Positions 52,278 through 59,166 of a stretch of DNA of 64,000 bases are shown piece by piece; within the stretch, counting starts at the first letter, position 1, and every line of letters starts with the position of its first letter. A program made the position numbers and the translations under genes. The notes beneath the pieces were generated by a model. It saw only the letters and a program-made list of their open reading frames with translations. It was not told where the DNA came from and searched no databases. The stretch lies in assembly GCA_965220565.1 (NCBI GenBank), contig CBDCQG010000001.1:532297-596296 (forward strand), given 5' to 3'. Source of the DNA: Dehalococcoidia bacterium. GTDB taxonomy: Bacteria > Chloroflexota > Dehalococcoidia > UBA6926.

Positions 52278-53252
52278 TTGGTAGCGACGGTTGACCGCGC
52301 GCGCGAAGTTGTCGACAAGACGTTGGAGAACGTCGAACGGGTGATAGTAGGAAAGCGCGCGGCTGCGGAGCTTGCCCTGACGGCGGTATTGGGCGGAGGC
52401 CACTTCCTGATCGAGGACGTGCCCGGCGTCGGCAAGACAATGCTGGCCCGCAGCGTCGCCACCTCCCTCGGCGCATCCTTCAAGCGCGTGCAGTTCACGC
52501 CTGATCTGCTGCCCACCGACGTCATCGGCGTCAACCTCTACAACCAGCGGACCGGCGAGTTCGAGTTCCGCGCAGGCCCCGTTCTCGCTCATATCCTCCT
52601 CGCCGATGAGATCAACCGCGGCACGCCCAAGACCCAATCCGCGCTGTTGGAGGCGATGGAGGAAGGGCAGGTGACGGTGGATGGCGTGACCCATCCTCTC
52701 CCGCAGCCATTTCATGTCATCGCCACGCAGAATCCCCTGGAGCATGAGGGAACGTTCCTGCTGCCCGAGGCGCAGCGGGATCGCTTCTTCCTGCGCCTGT
52801 CGCTTGGCTATCCGACGGTCGACTCCGAGATGGAAATCATGGATCGAACCCGTCTTGAACACCCCATAGATAGTATTGAGCCCGTGACCACGCCGGAAGA
52901 GGCGCTGGATCTCCAACAGACGGTGCGGCAGGTGTACGTGGACGACCTCATCAAGCGATACATCGTCGACATCGTGGACGGCACGCGGGAACACGGCTCC
53001 GTCTACGTCGGGGCGTCCCCGCGCGGCGCGCTGACACTCTTCCGCGGCGGGCAGGCCCGCGCCGTCATGGACGGGCGCGACTATGTCCTGCCGGACGACA
53101 TCAAGTACCTGGTCAATCCGGTCCTGGGACATCGCATCATCCTCAATCCGAACGCCAGGATGCAGGGAATCAGCACGGATGACGTGCTGTCGCAGGTGCT
53201 GGAGCGTGTCCCTGTGCCGGGAGCCGTGCCGCGAGGGTGGCTGCGGAACTGA
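52278..53252 (+). CDS. moxR: MoxR-family AAA+ ATPase
   Basis: EDVPGVGKT, RVQFTPDLLP, DEINR, ATQNP, PEAQ.DRF. Confidence 0.95.
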   Translation: MVATVDRAREVVDKTLENVERVIVGKRAAAELALTAVLGGGHFLIEDVPGVGKTMLARSVATSLGASFKRVQFTPDLLPTDVIGVNLYNQRTGEFEFRAGPVLAHILLADEINRGTPKTQSALLEAMEEGQVTVDGVTHPLPQPFHVIATQNPLEHEGTFLLPEAQRDRFFLRLSLGYPTVDSEMEIMDRTRLEHPIDSIEPVTTPEEALDLQQTVRQVYVDDLIKRYIVDIVDGTREHGSVYVGASPRGALTLFRGGQARAVMDGRDYVLPDDIKYLVNPVLGHRIILNPNARMQGISTDDVLSQVLERVPVPGAVPRGWLRN

Positions 53253-53261
53253 GGGAACACC

Positions 53262-54518
53262 GTGCGGAGTCGCCGCGTCTATCTCGCCGCGCTGATCCTG
53301 ATGGCGCTGTTCCTGACCCTCGGGTCGGGATTCTACGTCATGTCCTACCTTCTCAGCGCCGTCATCGGCGTGTTCGTCCTGGCATGGCTCTGGACCAGGC
53401 TCAGCATGAGAGGCATCTCCGCCGGCGCTGATGATCAACCCTCCCTCGCCCAGGTGGGAGAGCGCGTGGAAGAGTCCGTCTGGCTTCAGAATTCATCCCT
53501 CCTTCCCCGCCCCTGGCTGCATGTTGAGGACATCGGCGACGTTCCCAGACTTGCGTCTGAGGTCATGGGCGTGCCCACGCGCGGCTCGCGGAACTGGACG
53601 AAACTGGGAACGCGGGCAGACACACGCGGCCGCTTTCACTGGGGTCCGTTGCGTGTCACCGCATCCGACCCCTTCGGCCTCTTTGAAATGACAAGAGTTA
53701 TCGGTGAAAAACGCGAGCTGGTCGTCTACCCGGCCCCGTTCCCACTGGAGGACTTCGTCATCTCCAGCGCAGAGGAGACCGGCGACGCGCCGGACTACCG
53801 CGCAACGTCCCAATTCACTCCCAACGTCGTCTCCGTCCGACGCTACACCGTCGGAGACAGCCTGAACCGCATCCACTGGAAGAGCAGCGCCAAGCTCAAC
53901 CGCTTGATGGTCAAGGAGTTTGAGACGGAGGTGCAGTCCGATCTCGCCATCCTGCTCGACCTCAACGCCGCCGTGCAGGTGGGTGAGGGCCTGACCGGAA
54001 CGGAAGAGGTTGCCGTCACGGTCGCCGCATCTCTTGCGCGATACTTGCTCGAATTTGACAACGGTGTTGGATTCTCCGCGATCGGCGACACGGAATACAC
54101 CATCCCCAACGGCACCGGCGATAAGCACATGTGGCGCATCTTGGAAGCACTGGCGCTCTGCAAAGCCGAGGGCAGGGTAAGCCTGAGTGAGTTGCTTGGC
54201 ATCCACGAGGCTCGTTTCAGCAGACGAACCGGCGTTATTGCCGTCACTCCGTCCGTTGAGGACGCGATGGCCGCCGCTAGCGTGCTGCAGGAGCGAAACT
54301 CCCCGGGAGCAGTCGTCCTCCTGGAGCCCACAAGCTTCGGAGCGCCCGGGGATTACACAGCGGAGTTGGCGACTCTCTACTCCATGGGCATCGCCGCCTA
54401 CGTCGTTCGCCTCGGTGACGATATTTCGCGGGCGCTGAGCTTCAACGCGCTCGGGCCCATCGCCATGCAGCCCGGTAATCGTCGCAGCTTTACGCGACCT
54501 GAAAGGTGGGGGGCGTGA
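53262..54518 (+). CDS. DUF58 domain protein
   Basis: DPFGLF, VRRYTVGDSLNRIHWKSSAK. Confidence 0.92.
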   Translation: MRSRRVYLAALILMALFLTLGSGFYVMSYLLSAVIGVFVLAWLWTRLSMRGISAGADDQPSLAQVGERVEESVWLQNSSLLPRPWLHVEDIGDVPRLASEVMGVPTRGSRNWTKLGTRADTRGRFHWGPLRVTASDPFGLFEMTRVIGEKRELVVYPAPFPLEDFVISSAEETGDAPDYRATSQFTPNVVSVRRYTVGDSLNRIHWKSSAKLNRLMVKEFETEVQSDLAILLDLNAAVQVGEGLTGTEEVAVTVAASLARYLLEFDNGVGFSAIGDTEYTIPNGTGDKHMWRILEALALCKAEGRVSLSELLGIHEARFSRRTGVIAVTPSVEDAMAAASVLQERNSPGAVVLLEPTSFGAPGDYTAELATLYSMGIAAYVVRLGDDISRALSFNALGPIAMQPGNRRSFTRPERWGA

Positions 54519-56857
54519 GCACGGAAGCGCGGCGCATGCCGCCTACCCAGCCCGCCTCTATGCCGCAGTGGCTGACCCGCGCGTGGCATCGCCTGGTGAC
54601 GTATCCGGACACAGGATGGCTGACAGTCTTCTTGGCGCTTATGGTCGCCGCCACTGTTGTCTGGAGTGTTGAGGACGCCCACTGGGTGCCGGTGATCCCG
54701 GGGGTGGGATTTGCCGTGCTCATCGGGGGCGCGGCAGGGTTGATCAACGCGACGCATCGCCGGAATTACGTCGCCCAACACGCCGTGGCCCTGTTCATCG
54801 CGCTGGCGCAGGCGTTCGCTCAAACGCTCACGGTCGTTACCGCTGCGAGCCTCGAAGGCAAGGCCCTGAGCGCCGGCTATCGCATGACGCTGTGGGCGCA
54901 GGCCCTCCTGGAGGGAGGCGCAAGCACGGATCGGCTGACCTTCGTCTTCCTCCTCCTGCTCGGCGCATGGGCCGTCGCCTATGTCACGGTCTACCTGACC
55001 CTCCTTCTGCGCAACATCTGGGCCACCTTGCCCGCGGGGTTTGCCATCGTCACCAACCTGACGTACCTGCCGCCGAGCACCCTCCCGTTCTTCATGGCGT
55101 TCCTGTTGGCCTCCGCGCTGCTCATCGTCCGCCTCGTGCATCTTGAGCGCCGCCGCAGATGGGATGAAACGACAACCACGCAGGGATCATGGCTGCCCGT
55201 CCACGTCATGCACGCCGGCATCTGGTTCGCGCTCATCATCTTTCTCGTGATCACCGTGGCCCCGACGCTCGACTCGGGCCCGCGATTCATCCGTTCGATG
55301 TGGACGGAGATACGCTCTCCCATCGGTGACGCGGAGGGCACATTCGCCCGCATCTTTGCCTCGCTGCCCGCTCGCCGGTCGATGGGGCTGTTCGGCTTTA
55401 CGGACGAACTGCCGTTCAGGGGAAACATCAACCTGCCCTCTGATGTGTTGATGCACGTCGAGAGCGATGAGCGGCTGTACTGGCGCGCCCGTACCTATGA
55501 CCGGTACGCGCGCTGGGGCTGGAGCAACAGCCCACTCGTCGTTGCTGAGCGGCGCGGCCTGGAAGACATCGCCGGAAGCAGTTACACCGGCTGCGCGGAG
55601 TGCATCAGGAACGTGACCTTTGAACTCAAGGCCCCGGCCAGCACGGTCTTTACCGCCGCCACCCCGCTCCGCACCACGCTGCCCGTCGAGGCCCAATTCA
55701 CCAACCTCGACGTCGACGAAGGCCATCGGCTGGTCAAGCTGGAAAGCCAGGACGTTCTGCAGCCCAACCAGCGGTATACCGTTCAGAGCTATGTCCCCCA
55801 GGTAACCGTCGAGAATATGAGCACGCTCACTCCCAACTATGAGAACTGGGTGACGGAGAGGTATCTGCAGCTGCCGGACGACCTCCCGCCGCGCGTCCGG
55901 CTGCTGTCCGAATCACTGGCTCAGAATGTCGATACGCCGTACCTCAAGGCCATCGCAATCCGGGAATACCTGCGGACGCTCGAATATTCGCAGAACATCA
56001 ACGCCCCTCCGCCCGGCGCCGATGGCCTCGAGCATTTCCTTTTCAGAGAACGGGCAGGGTATAGCGAGTATTTTGGCTCCGCCATGACGGTCATGCTTCG
56101 TGCGGCGGGCGTTCCGTCTCGAATGGTGGTCGGGTATCTGCCCGGTGAGTACAGCGACGAGCTGGGCGCGTTTGTTGTCCGCGAGACTGATCTCCATTCC
56201 TGGGCGGAGGCCTATTTCCCGGGATACGGATGGATTCCGTTTGAGGCGACACCGAATGTCGAGCCGGACGCCCCCGGCGGCCCGACGGGTACTTTCTCCG
56301 CCCTCGTTCCGGACGTTGACCTCGAACTCGCCGCCGATCTTGGCGCATTTGCATTTGAAGAGGCAGATCTGCTTCTGGAGGATAGTTTTTTCCAGTTCGG
56401 CGATGAGACCTTTGAAGACGCCGGGGGTGGCCTGATCCCCGGCGTGGGAGGCATTGATCCAAGGGTGTGGTACGCAGCCGGAGGAGCGGTTGGCGTTGCC
56501 GCGCTGGCAGCCATCCTCTTCTTGTGGTGGCAGGCCCTCGCGCGGCCGCGCACGGCGGGGAGGGCATACGCGCAAACCGTTCGCCTGGGGCGGCTGGCCG
56601 GCATCAAGACCCGGTCGGACGAAACTCCGGCGGAATATATCAGCCGCGTTTCCGCCGCGTGGCCTCGCGCAACATGGGCGCTTTATGGTGTAGTGCAGTG
56701 GTACGACCATGTCCTGTACGGCCCTGATAAGGACGCCCCGCCGGACAGGCCGTTCTCATGGCGCGCCATCGTCTTTGGGCTGCTGGCGCTCACATTCCTG
56801 AGATTCGTTCCCAGAGGGCGCGCCCGGGTGAGAAGGAGAACTGCAGATGCAAGCTAA
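54515..56857 (+). CDS. multi-TM transglutaminase-like protein (TgpA-type)
   Basis: LYWRARTYD, GYSEYFGSAM, HSWAEAYFPGYGWIPFEATP, C-terminal ETPAEY. Confidence 0.9.
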   Translation: MSTEARRMPPTQPASMPQWLTRAWHRLVTYPDTGWLTVFLALMVAATVVWSVEDAHWVPVIPGVGFAVLIGGAAGLINATHRRNYVAQHAVALFIALAQAFAQTLTVVTAASLEGKALSAGYRMTLWAQALLEGGASTDRLTFVFLLLLGAWAVAYVTVYLTLLLRNIWATLPAGFAIVTNLTYLPPSTLPFFMAFLLASALLIVRLVHLERRRRWDETTTTQGSWLPVHVMHAGIWFALIIFLVITVAPTLDSGPRFIRSMWTEIRSPIGDAEGTFARIFASLPARRSMGLFGFTDELPFRGNINLPSDVLMHVESDERLYWRARTYDRYARWGWSNSPLVVAERRGLEDIAGSSYTGCAECIRNVTFELKAPASTVFTAATPLRTTLPVEAQFTNLDVDEGHRLVKLESQDVLQPNQRYTVQSYVPQVTVENMSTLTPNYENWVTERYLQLPDDLPPRVRLLSESLAQNVDTPYLKAIAIREYLRTLEYSQNINAPPPGADGLEHFLFRERAGYSEYFGSAMTVMLRAAGVPSRMVVGYLPGEYSDELGAFVVRETDLHSWAEAYFPGYGWIPFEATPNVEPDAPGGPTGTFSALVPDVDLELAADLGAFAFEEADLLLEDSFFQFGDETFEDAGGGLIPGVGGIDPRVWYAAGGAVGVAALAAILFLWWQALARPRTAGRAYAQTVRLGRLAGIKTRSDETPAEYISRVSAAWPRATWALYGVVQWYDHVLYGPDKDAPPDRPFSWRAIVFGLLALTFLRFVPRGRARVRRRTADAS

Positions 56858-57449
56858 TGCCTACCGGACTATCTCAACACCGCTTGGATTCCTCGGCCTC
56901 GTCGCTTCTCCAAAGGGCCTCAAGGCAGTCTTGGGACCGCATGATGACCGAGAACTCGTCGAGCAGGAACGCGCCGAGATCCTTGCTCCACTGAGTGACG
57001 ACCCCGCCGGCGAGATCCTCAATCACTGGGCGGATGTTCTCTTACGCTACACAAACGGGGAGACGATGGACCTCTCCGGTCCGATGGACATGGACGGCGG
57101 CACGGAATTCCAGCGCGCCGTCTGGCAGGCGCTCACGGAGATTCCCGCCGGCGCCGTGTGGACATACGGTGACGTTGCCCACGCTATCGGCAGGCCAAAG
57201 GCGGCGCGTGCCGTTGGACAGGCCGTTGGCGCTAATCCGCTCGGAATCGCCGTTCCTTGACATCGTGTCGTGGGCGCGGACGGCGCCCTGACCGGTTTCG
57301 GCGGCGGACTCGCCACCAAGGAACGCCTCCTCCTCCATGAGGGTTGGGCGGACGCATCGAAACAGCGAGAGCGGACTGAGTCCCGGGCCGGATTCAGGCT
57401 GACGCGCCGTGAGCGAGGTCTGCGGCCCCGCATCGGCGTCATCGACTAG
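56847..57449 (+). CDS. ogt: methylated-DNA--protein-cysteine methyltransferase, predicted selenoprotein (UGA at the active-site Cys)
   Basis: GTEFQ..VW, ARAVG...[30 protein letters not shown]; read-through ends at TAG 57449. Confidence 0.9.
57261..57293 (+). promoter_or_regulatory. putative bacterial SECIS element of ogt
   Basis: 11 nt after the UGA comes the stem GGGCGC-GGACG-GCGCCC, with a G-first loop and GTC/GAC lower pairs. Confidence 0.75.
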
Positions 57450-57453
57450 CTGC

Positions 57454-59166
57454 TTACTCCTCCTCCAGGGACTCGTCCTCCACCGGCGCGCGCGGGCTGG
57501 AGCGGGCGCGTTCCAGGTATGTCGGATCCCGCAGCGTTTCTTCAATCATCTCTGACGCCCGCTCGCCCGCGGCCTCAAATGGAAGCAGCACCAGCGTCGC
57601 GCCAAGGTCTTCCAGGCGATGGGCCGTGGCGGCGGACTGGCTTGTCAGGAGAACGGGGCGGCGGAAGTCGTTTTCTCGCAGCGCCTCAAGCAGGCCCACT
57701 TCGATATCGGGCGCGCGGATCGTTGACACGGCGATGCGCGCAGAGCGGAGGGGCAGCCCCTGGAGGAATTCCGGCGCTTCAACGTCGGCGAATCTCATGT
57801 GAAAACCGAGGTCTTGCAGGCGGCGCACTGCCACAGGGTCGAAATCGACGCCCATCGCCTCAACACCAATGTCGCGCAGGCGGGACAGGATGACCGTGCC
57901 CAGCCGTCCCGTTCCGAAGACGAGCACCTGCACGGGCTGGTCCGCCTCGTCAACGATTTCGTCCTCCCTGTGAGCGATGGGGCGTTCCAGCTTGTTCGTG
58001 ACGGGCTGCACGAATCGGTAGATCTGGTTGGCATACGTGATCATGTAGGTGGACGCGGCGAAGGTGATCAATCCCACCAGCGTGACAAGGGCAAGGCTGG
58101 ATTCATCCACGTGACCCAGGTCCAGCCCGAGCGCCATCAGGATGAAGGAGAATTCGCTGATCTGGGCAAGCGCCATGCCGGCCACCAGCCCTGTACGGGC
58201 GCGGAAGCCCATTGCGATGGCGATGCCCATGACGATGAGCGGGTTGCCGATCAGCACGAAGAGCGAAAGCCCGATAGCGGGAAGAAGTTGGTCCTGCAGG
58301 TCGGAAAGCTGCAGATGCACACCCAGGCTCACAAAGAAGAACAGGAGGAGAAAGTCCCGAACCGTTGTCAGGCGGGCAGCAACCAGTTGGCGCGGCCTCT
58401 TGGTTGCCAGCACGACACCGGCAACGAATGCGCCCATCTCCGGGCTGAATCCCGCCCACGTCGCCCCTGCGGCCATGAGTACGGCCCAGGCGATGCCGCC
58501 GAGAACCAGCACTTCAGGTGTCGTGATCATGCGCGGCTCAATGAGCGGGATCAGGAACCGCGCCACGATGATCATGCCGATAACAAGCGCCGCGCCACGC
58601 AGCAGGCTCAGCCCCAGCTGCTCAAGAGTCGCCTCGGCGCCCTCCGCCCCTTCGAGGCCGGACAGCAGTGTGAGGGCAACGATGACGACAATGTCCTGCA
58701 CGATGAGGATGCCGAGCGCGATGCGCCCGTGCAGGGAGTCGATCTCTCGCCGGTCAGAGAGAACCTTGACGATGATGACCGTGCTGGAGAAAGTCAGCGC
58801 GAGAGAGATGTAGAAGGCGGTCAGGAGATCAAGGCCGAACAGGAGCGTGATCAGGAAACCGACGACGGTCGTGACGATCACCTGTCCGAGGCCGGATATC
58901 ACAGCAACGAAACCGGCTGTGCGGATGAGCGACGGATCAAGCTTCAGGCCAACAACGAAGAGCAGCAGCGCAATGCCAACGCGGCCAAACAGGTCAACAA
59001 ATTCGGAGTCCGCGGGCACCATGTCGACGCCGGCCGGACCAACGAAGACGCCCACGAAGATGAATGCCACGACAATCGGCTGGCGCAGCACTGTCGCGAC
59101 AACTGCCGCGAGAGTGGCGACACCGAGAATCTGTATCAGATCAACGAATTCGGCAGACGGAGTCAT
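57454..59166 (-). CDS. CPA2 cation:proton antiporter with TrkA-N domain (KefB/KefC-like)
   Basis: LLFVVGL, FSSTVI, LIVQD, QISEFSF, C-terminal GTGRLG. Confidence 0.92.
   Translation of the reverse strand: MTPSAEFVDLIQILGVATLAAVVATVLRQPIVVAFIFVGVFVGPAGVDMVPADSEFVDLFGRVGIALLLFVVGLKLDPSLIRTAGFVAVISGLGQVIVTTVVGFLITLLFGLDLLTAFYISLALTFSSTVIIVKVLSDRREIDSLHGRIALGILIVQDIVVIVALTLLSGLEGAEGAEATLEQLGLSLLRGAALVIGMIIVARFLIPLIEPRMITTPEVLVLGGIAWAVLMAAGATWAGFSPEMGAFVAGVVLATKRPRQLVAARLTTVRDFLLLFFFVSLGVHLQLSDLQDQLLPAIGLSLFVLIGNPLIVMGIAIAMGFRARTGLVAGMALAQISEFSFILMALGLDLGHVDESSLALVTLVGLITFAASTYMITYANQIYRFVQPVTNKLERPIAHREDEIVDEADQPVQVLVFGTGRLGTVILSRLRDIGVEAMGVDFDPVAVRRLQDLGFHMRFADVEAPEFLQGLPLRSARIAVSTIRAPDIEVGLLEALRENDFRRPVLLTSQSAATAHRLEDLGATLVLLPFEAAGERASEMIEETLRDPTYLERARSSPRAPVEDESLEEE

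Follow-up and report, generated by a model that had tools for sequence, protein, structure and literature searches.

Does the gene ogt of a Dehalococcoidia bacterium end at its codon 138, a TGA, or is this codon read as selenocysteine (Sec) in place of the cysteine (Cys) that serves as nucleophile in O6-alkylguanine-DNA alkyltransferases (AGT)? The question is posed by a stretch of 64,000 nucleotides (nt), hereafter the window (positions 532,297 to 596,296 of contig CBDCQG010000001.1, assembly GCA_965220565.1; Chloroflexota, UBA6926), for which an original prediction, made from the letters alone, had proposed a Sec-containing alkyltransferase at 56847..57449. Having compared the gene across related genomes, together with the RNA downstream of its TGA and the Sec machinery of its genome, we consider it very probable that ogt is a genuine selenoprotein gene.

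A TGA codon at the catalytic position

The gene runs from an ATG at 56847 to a terminal TAG at 57447-57449, and its sole internal stop is the TGA at 57258-57260, which lies in the context A-V-P-TGA-H-R-V-V. Reading this TGA as Sec gives a protein of 200 residues, with 62 codons 3' of the TGA, whereas translation with table 11 breaks the gene into two open reading frames (ORFs) of 137 (56847-57260) and 59 amino acids (57270-57449). The elements of the gene are the following:

56847..57449, plus strand: ogt coding sequence, 200 codons including one TGA predicted to be read as Sec, then the TAG stop (frame reading; PF01035 and TIGR00589 above cut-offs; structure model)

56847..57104, plus strand: N-terminal domain, residues 1-86, three strands and two helices (predicted secondary structure; aligns to the N-terminal domain of Mycobacterium tuberculosis OGT)

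57105..57344, plus strand: catalytic/DNA-binding domain PF01035, residues 87-166 (Pfam match; invariant columns kept)

57258..57260, plus strand: TGA, codon 138, predicted Sec at the nucleophile position of P-[C/U]-H-R-V (orthologue alignment; contigs)

57345..57446, plus strand: basic C-terminal extension, residues 167-200 (conserved in all 27 orthologues, Cys and Sec forms)

The Pfam domain PF01035 passes straight through the TGA (E 5.2e-35, 119.6 bits vs a cut-off of 27), and the NCBIfam model TIGR00589 scores 113.8 bits vs a cut-off of 46.4. The closest solved sequences are M. tuberculosis OGT (E 2.3e-28, query 6-163 aligned to chain residues 4-151), Escherichia coli Ada-C (4.1e-27) and human AGT (~1e-18). 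An AlphaFold2 model, built from an alignment of 69 sequences with Sec entered as Cys, reached a predicted local distance difference test score (pLDDT) of 91.6 and a predicted template-modelling score of 0.87. It matches the structures 4bhb, 1sfe and 1yfh at Foldseek E-values of 1.5e-12 to 1.1e-10 (4bhb at E 1.5e-12 with a TM-score of 0.78 on the target; 1sfe with 0.81), which gives the two-domain alkyltransferase fold.

All 23 columns that are invariant among the 69 homologues are kept, including Y107, R121, N130, P137, C/U138, H139, R140 and E165, which by an offset of 7 taken from the sequence alignment are equivalent to Y114, R128, N137, P144, C145, H146, R147 and E172 of human AGT. Among these, Y114 and R128, and hence Y107 and R121 of the query, are presumably active-site or DNA-binding residues. 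N137, H146 and E172 are residues with described roles in the available part of PMC4150793. The TGA itself aligns to an invariant Cys column, as had been claimed from the PCHRV motif. The gene product would in all likelihood be a full-length, functional O6-alkylguanine-DNA alkyltransferase with Sec as its active-site nucleophile.

An alkyltransferase-like (ATL) damage sensor was considered and rejected: the N-terminal domain is present, the nucleophile position has a TGA, predicted to be recoded, in place of Trp or Ala, and the ATL structures 3gva and 3gx4 match over 87-92 columns only, with Foldseek E-values (4.5e-5 to 2.8e-4) far behind those of true Ogt proteins.

We searched for orthologues in the whole genomes of 28 members of the taxonomic family, 22 from the genus itself and 6 from two sister genera. 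An orthologue is present in 21 of the 22 genus genomes, the genome under study included, with 69-100% identity and exactly one TGA in each. The catalytic codon reads TGA in 21/21 genus orthologues and TGT or TGC in all six orthologues from the sister genera. The frame 3' of the TGA is intact in every one of the 21 genes, with no extra stop and no frameshift, and leads to the same conserved C-terminus. Over codons 139-200, nonsynonymous and synonymous substitution rates stand in a ratio (dN/dS; Nei-Gojobori, 210 pairs among the 21 genes) of 0.076, as against 0.126 over codons 1-137 (186/210 pairs, those with saturated dS having been dropped); it is 0.095 for the tail of residues 166-200 (185 pairs). 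By these ratios, selection at the protein level is at least as strong behind the 'stop' as before it.

These results bear directly on whether ogt is a pseudogene, a truncated gene or the product of a sequencing error, of which only a 137-residue fragment, or nothing, would be made. This is how the gene looks under table 11, with its two ORFs, and how public sets treat it, as the original prediction had expected: 42 of the 120 listed clusters at 90% identity are called at 137-139 amino acids, ending just before the catalytic residue and covering 69% of the query, and these shortened clusters derive from NCBI, ENA, JGI and Logan assemblies alike. A decaying 3' fragment, however, would gather stops and frameshifts, of which there are none in 21/21 genes; the same TGA recurs in genomes as distant as 69% in protein identity; and no conserved gene that overlaps this part in a different frame or on the opposite strand, and could account for the low dN/dS downstream, was identified. 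Contigs from three sequencing runs (X1-X3) of one sample cover the TGA without differences and show neither TGC nor TGT at 57258..57260. From a fourth run (X4), which belongs to another study, a 151-nt contig over 57130-57280 differs at two letters, one of them listed (57212), and is not clean independent proof. Purifying selection downstream and the intact frame together exclude a pseudogene or truncated gene for practical purposes, and we regard this explanation as exceedingly improbable.

The shortened calls are instead a matter of annotation. The nearest named homologues are labelled 'Dehalococcoidia bacterium', and NCBIfam holds no dedicated selenoprotein model for a Sec-type ogt. In a library of 1.84 billion proteins, only two of the best 150 representatives end at query position 137, both 137 amino acids long and both from this clade; distant shortened forms would score too low to appear, so the library result is silent on them. 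With fragments of 137 residues called in place of the full protein, this group is credited with too little DNA-repair capacity and too small a selenoproteome.

A residue near the catalytic codon also separates the two forms. Gly133 (57243-57245, in the motif NPLG-I/V) is fixed in 21/21 Sec forms, and its place is taken by Thr or Ile in the six Cys orthologues; by the offset of 7 it corresponds to position 140 of human AGT, near the substrate pocket. Gly133 may be an adjustment that accompanied the switch from Cys to Sec.

The hairpin behind the UGA and the decoding machinery

If the UGA is decoded as Sec, a selenocysteine insertion sequence (SECIS) is expected to follow it, and the original prediction had pointed to a perfect 6-bp stem with a G-first loop 11 nt downstream. 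This hairpin is found as described:

57261..57271, plus strand: 11-nt spacer between UGA and hairpin (same length in 21/21 TGA forms)

57272..57288, plus strand: putative SECIS core, 6-bp stem GGGCGC/GCGCCC and 5-nt loop GGACG, encoding V-G-A-D-G-A, codons 142-147 (folding, conservation, criteria for bacterial SECIS elements)

Its 17 nt comprise the 5' strand of the stem (57272-57277), the loop (57278-57282) and the 3' strand (57283-57288). Its folding energy in isolation is -13.7 kcal/mol (z -3.16), which 1 of 200 shuffles matches, and that of a 66-nt context is -33.8 kcal/mol (z -2.72). The hairpin alone is not beyond chance, and the weight is therefore carried by the comparative evidence. 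Among the 21 genes, 99 degenerate codon columns encode an invariant amino acid, and only 8 of them are monomorphic at the DNA level; five of these eight are the consecutive codons 142-146 (GTG GGC GCG GAC GGC), which form stem and loop. Synonymous freezing thus affects 5 of the 6 hairpin codons vs 3 of the 93 others, and the sixth hairpin codon is only ever GCC or GCT, the latter turning a G-C pair into G-U in three sequences. All 120 stem cells scored across the 21 sequences are paired (100%).

The three frozen codons outside the hairpin are A3 (GCT), P137 (CCT) and H164 (CAT). The second of these, at 57255-57257, lies directly 5' of the UGA and is CCT in all 21 species, which may reflect a codon-context constraint on Sec insertion.

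The hairpin can also be placed against published descriptions. The criteria for bacterial SECIS (bSECIS) elements, as given in the legend to Fig. 2 of PMC13188914, are a loop of 3-9 nt, an upper stem of 4-16 bp, a G within loop positions 1-2, a UGA-to-loop distance of 16-37 nt and a minimum free energy (MFE) of -7.5 kcal/mol or below; the ogt hairpin, with its 5-nt loop, 6-bp stem, GG, 17 nt and -13.7 kcal/mol, lies within all of these bounds, and so does the identical hairpin, at 17 nt, in each of the 21 TGA forms. For the SECIS of E. coli fdhF, the available text of PMC8659212 gives an upper stem-loop of 17 nt at a distance of 11 nt from the UGA, in which U17 is bulged and the loop carries G23/U24. 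Size and spacing are the same in ogt, and a G stands in the apical loop, so the likeness drawn in the original prediction holds in this respect.

Several observations weigh against reading ogt as a selenoprotein gene, or lighten the evidence for it, and we list them together:

(i) A naive scan of the genome (62% GC) for a TGA followed at 9-13 nt by a perfect 6-bp GC-rich stem with a GG or GU loop returns 35 sites, of which ogt alone has the appearance of a coding Sec site; the pattern is thus no usable selenoprotein finder in this genome.

(ii) The bSECIS criteria, as that legend gives them, are permissive, in that 14 of 102 Cys forms pass them at the same place: 1 of 6 from the sister genera, 4 of 20 from a sample of the phylum (401 genomes, of which five flagged as unpublished, G253, G171, G298, G370 and G065, enter tallies only) and 9 of 76 from other phyla.

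(iii) The contrast in synonymous freezing has a Fisher p of 4.6e-6, a value that is overstated because the hairpin bounds were set after the data had been viewed and because the 21 species are kin.

(iv) Compensatory changes are seen at 0 of the 6 core pairs in the 21 sequences, so that the support is one of constraint and not of covariation; with an invariant stem, shuffle and slide controls carry no information.

(v) A scan of 56000-58500 against Rfam at E-values up to 10 returned no SECIS family and a single chance match, a minus-strand snoRNA (E 5.8, 18.1 bits vs a gathering threshold of 45).

(vi) In contrast to the fdhF element as described in PMC8659212, the ogt hairpin has no bulged U, carries GG in its loop GGACG where fdhF has G23-U24, and shows no further sequence similarity. 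Given the missing bulge and the GG loop, it is predicted to work like the fdhF type without being a sequence member of it.

(vii) One genus genome (G008; 230 contigs, 90% complete) yielded no orthologue with this query, only the paralogue described below.

(viii) The one sample behind runs X1-X3 may be the source of this assembly.

(ix) The presence of selenium in the protein, like the contact of SelB with the hairpin and alkyl transfer to selenium, is an inference, drawn from how the gene is built, from the Sec machinery of the genome, from conservation and selection, and from the constraint on the hairpin.

The presence of sel genes had been named as a check, and the genome (1.97 Mb in 4 contigs) contains the Sec system in full: SelA (542 bits), SelB (a wing domain at 43 bits within an open frame of 633 amino acids), SelD (391 bits) and tRNA-SeC(tca), which is the single tRNA with a tca anticodon among the 49 called by ARAGORN. 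SelD, at 1322754-1323677 on the minus strand of the contig, has an in-frame TGA of its own at SHCAG-U-AAK, which we take to be the known Sec/Cys site of this protein; with this codon in SelD, the Sec system depends on its own product. The hairpin behind the SelD UGA is shaped differently (CUCGGC-CCC-GCCGAG in the MFE fold), and with the two hairpins differing, no lineage-specific SECIS consensus can be drawn from the two genes.

It is against this inventory that an ordinary read-through has to be judged, whereby a near-cognate or suppressor tRNA would put one of the standard amino acids Cys, Trp or Arg at the UGA and the hairpin would be a generic stimulator of read-through. The comparative data show translation past the TGA and not the residue inserted there, and the stem lacks covariation, as this explanation would allow. 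Yet the TGA sits exactly at a nucleophile at which Cys and Sec are interchangeable, the hairpin agrees with a bacterial SECIS in size, in spacing and in its GG loop, the only tca tRNA is called as tRNA-SeC, and a complete Sec system is kept whose SelD has its TGA at a site equivalent to Cys. Insertion of Trp or Arg as the nucleophile residue would, moreover, inactivate the enzyme, which is hard to square with the strength of selection downstream. We consider standard-amino-acid read-through very unlikely.

Probable origin of the Sec form and its place among alkyltransferases

In a maximum-likelihood tree of the 27 orthologues and 12 Cys homologues, the 21 TGA forms make up one clade (support 99/99) nested among the Cys forms, so that a single change suffices to explain them. 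A transglutaminase-like gene lies directly upstream of ogt in 27/27 family genomes, which makes the Sec and Cys forms positional orthologues and means that the change happened in place. SelA and SelB were each found in 4 of the 5 sister-genus genomes searched, and the machinery therefore predates the switch from Cys to Sec. From tree and gene order we conclude with high confidence that a single TGY-to-TGA change, at the root of the genus, would have turned an ancestral Cys gene into the Sec form without moving it.

The hairpin, too, appears to have had a precursor. At the same spot, the Cys orthologues of the sister genera have weaker hairpins of -3.2 to -7.6 kcal/mol in five of six cases and none in the sixth, and TGA and hairpin occur together in 21/21 genus orthologues, so relatives uniformly with Cys and without hairpin, which the original prediction had named as grounds for abandoning it, are not what is found. 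The codons for G-A-D-G-A are partly self-complementary, and this may have eased the birth of the SECIS.

Elsewhere in the phylum sample, the search for Sec forms was negative among the 20 listed TGA-bearing matches, all of which have Cys with the TGA as natural stop; 352 further matches are unlisted. Among the best 80 of 578 loci in named genome records, there are only distant Cys-type homologues of at most 52% identity.

The family as such is not new, and the original prediction rightly called the gene rare rather than novel. A Sec alkyltransferase was first reported in 2005 from Carboxydothermus hydrogenoformans (CHY0809, ABB14497.1), with a stem-loop after the UGA, in the passages of PMC1287953 available to us. 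According to the available portions of the later surveys, the Olavius symbiont metagenome has two Sec and eight Cys forms (PMC1976440), and the GOS survey has one Sec sequence vs 2,879 Cys homologues (PMC2398784). Reviews of 2022 and 2026 place the Sec alkyltransferase among the 'predicted' families (excerpts of PMC9312934 and PMC13188914), and BSepDB, in the accessible part of PMC13326102, counts Dehalococcoidia with 46-49 selenoproteins. The family is thus already catalogued, and the supplements of selenoproteome papers and the BSepDB tables, which lay outside the search, may list the gene of this clade.

Set beside CHY0809, as far as it is described in that 2005 text, the gene belongs to the same family (pfam01035), has Sec for the active-site Cys and carries a stem-loop right after the UGA. 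It differs in that it comes from another lineage, that Sec is fixed genus-wide (21/22 genomes) and is not the oddity of a single genome, and, as a contrast listed between the two, that the present protein has a basic C-terminal extension of ~35 residues. That the nearest sister-genus orthologues carry Cys suggests an origin that may be separate from that of the Carboxydothermus gene. With the Cys-type proteins Ogt, Ada-C and human AGT (4bhb, 1sfe, 1eh6), the product would share the two-domain fold, the helix-turn-helix, the P-x-H-R-V loop, the equivalents of N137, H146 and E172 and the expected single-turnover transfer; the TGA in place of TGY, the putative SECIS within the gene, Gly133 and the C-terminal extension set it apart. 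What is added here to the known family is genus-wide fixation of Sec, its predicted in-place origin, constraint on the putative SECIS at the RNA level, a Cys-type Ada paralogue and systematic mis-annotation.

The clade offers natural Sec and Cys orthologues, paired in the same gene context, for comparing alkyl transfer, and a Cys-to-Sec conversion that would date to the base of the genus with a visible origin of its SECIS.

Proposed action of a Sec alkyltransferase

We expect that SelB, carrying Sec-tRNA(Sec), would be recruited by the 17-nt hairpin 11 nt past the UGA, that the UGA would be read as Sec138, and that the ribosome would go on for 62 codons to the TAG. The protein would then bind DNA via its helix-turn-helix and flip out the alkylated guanine, the alkyl group of which would move irreversibly, in a single turnover, to residue 138, a selenolate instead of a thiolate.

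Ogt is a suicide protein that repairs one lesion per molecule. Sec has been kept in at least 21 species even though its costly insertion would be needed for each repair, which argues that selenolate outdoes thiolate kinetically or chemically in alkyl transfer. In the literature search, biochemical work on Sec alkyltransferases was limited to an engineered human one (PMC4150793), with none on a natural form. In the available part of this work (Nucleic Acids Res 2014), a human AGT bearing Sec145 shields ada- and ogt-deficient E. coli against N-methyl-N'-nitro-N-nitrosoguanidine (MNNG), so that alkyl transfer to Sec is chemically feasible, and the N137A exchange inactivated Cys AGT and not Sec AGT. 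The engineered protein, hAGT U145, shares the fold and has its Sec in the corresponding catalytic position; it is artificial, made by a UAG- and EF-Tu-dependent and SECIS-free route by the same partial account, whereas ogt of this clade occurs in nature and would rely on UGA, SelB and a SECIS.

A second alkyltransferase is encoded ~16 kb past the end of the window, at 611963-613063 of the contig. It is of the Ada type, with a Zn-finger/AraC-like N-terminus followed by an Ogt C-domain, and has the Cys of PCHRV. In the genus genomes where both are listed, a paralogue 37-43% identical to the Sec-Ogt lies ~23-32 kb from its gene.

The paralogue matters for an explanation that would add to the Sec reading and not replace it, namely that the gene has a dual output, a full-length Sec-Ogt when selenium is present and, when it is not, a 137-residue protein that consists of the N-terminal domain and the helix-turn-helix and lacks the active site, the shorter form having a role of its own, such as damage binding. 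Decoding of UGA as Sec generally competes with termination, read-through being a few percent of that of a normal codon (available text of PMC8659212), and the Cys-type Ada of the same genome could cover repair under selenium scarcity. A stable or functional 137-residue product, however, finds no support in this analysis: such a form would lose the active-site loop and the helix 155-164, which is packed in the catalytic domain of the model, and selection is weaker on the N-terminal part than downstream (0.126 vs 0.076). We think a functional short product rather unlikely.

Taking the Sec reading together with these comparisons, we put forward tentatively, as a possibility on the doubtful side, a broader account in which a natural, genus-wide Sec-Ogt would have come from an in-place change of TGY to TGA, eased by the self-complementarity of GGC-GCG...GGC-GCC at SECIS distance. 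Its selenolate, deprotonated at physiological pH, would free the enzyme from Asn-assisted activation of a thiolate and allow faster or broader repair beside the Cys-type Ada, with selenium supply deciding which of the two is made. If true, this clade would hold the natural counterpart of hAGT U145, and its cells would pay one Sec per repaired lesion.

Two further features of the locus lie at the 5' end of the gene:

54506..56857, plus strand: upstream transglutaminase-like (TgpA-type) gene, its stop overlapping the ogt start by 11 nt

56833..56838, plus strand: Shine-Dalgarno-like AAGGAG, 8 nt 5' of the ATG, within the 3' end of the upstream gene (direct sequence reading)

Over 52278-57449, the row of genes is MoxR AAA ATPase, DUF58, transglutaminase (TgpA-like) and, last, ogt, which is probably in one operon with the transglutaminase-like gene upstream. 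A transglutaminase is an unusual neighbour for a DNA repair gene, and the adjacency is kept across three genera.

The C-terminal extension has the motif ...QRxRTExRxGFRxTRRExGLRxR..., conserved in 27/27 orthologues, with a predicted helix at 170-178 and high pLDDT to about residue 190. Matches to solved structures stop at query residues 162-169, the extension being absent from solved Ogt chains. It might add DNA contacts. An extension of ~35 residues is also common to a set of metagenomic homologues of 197-215 amino acids.

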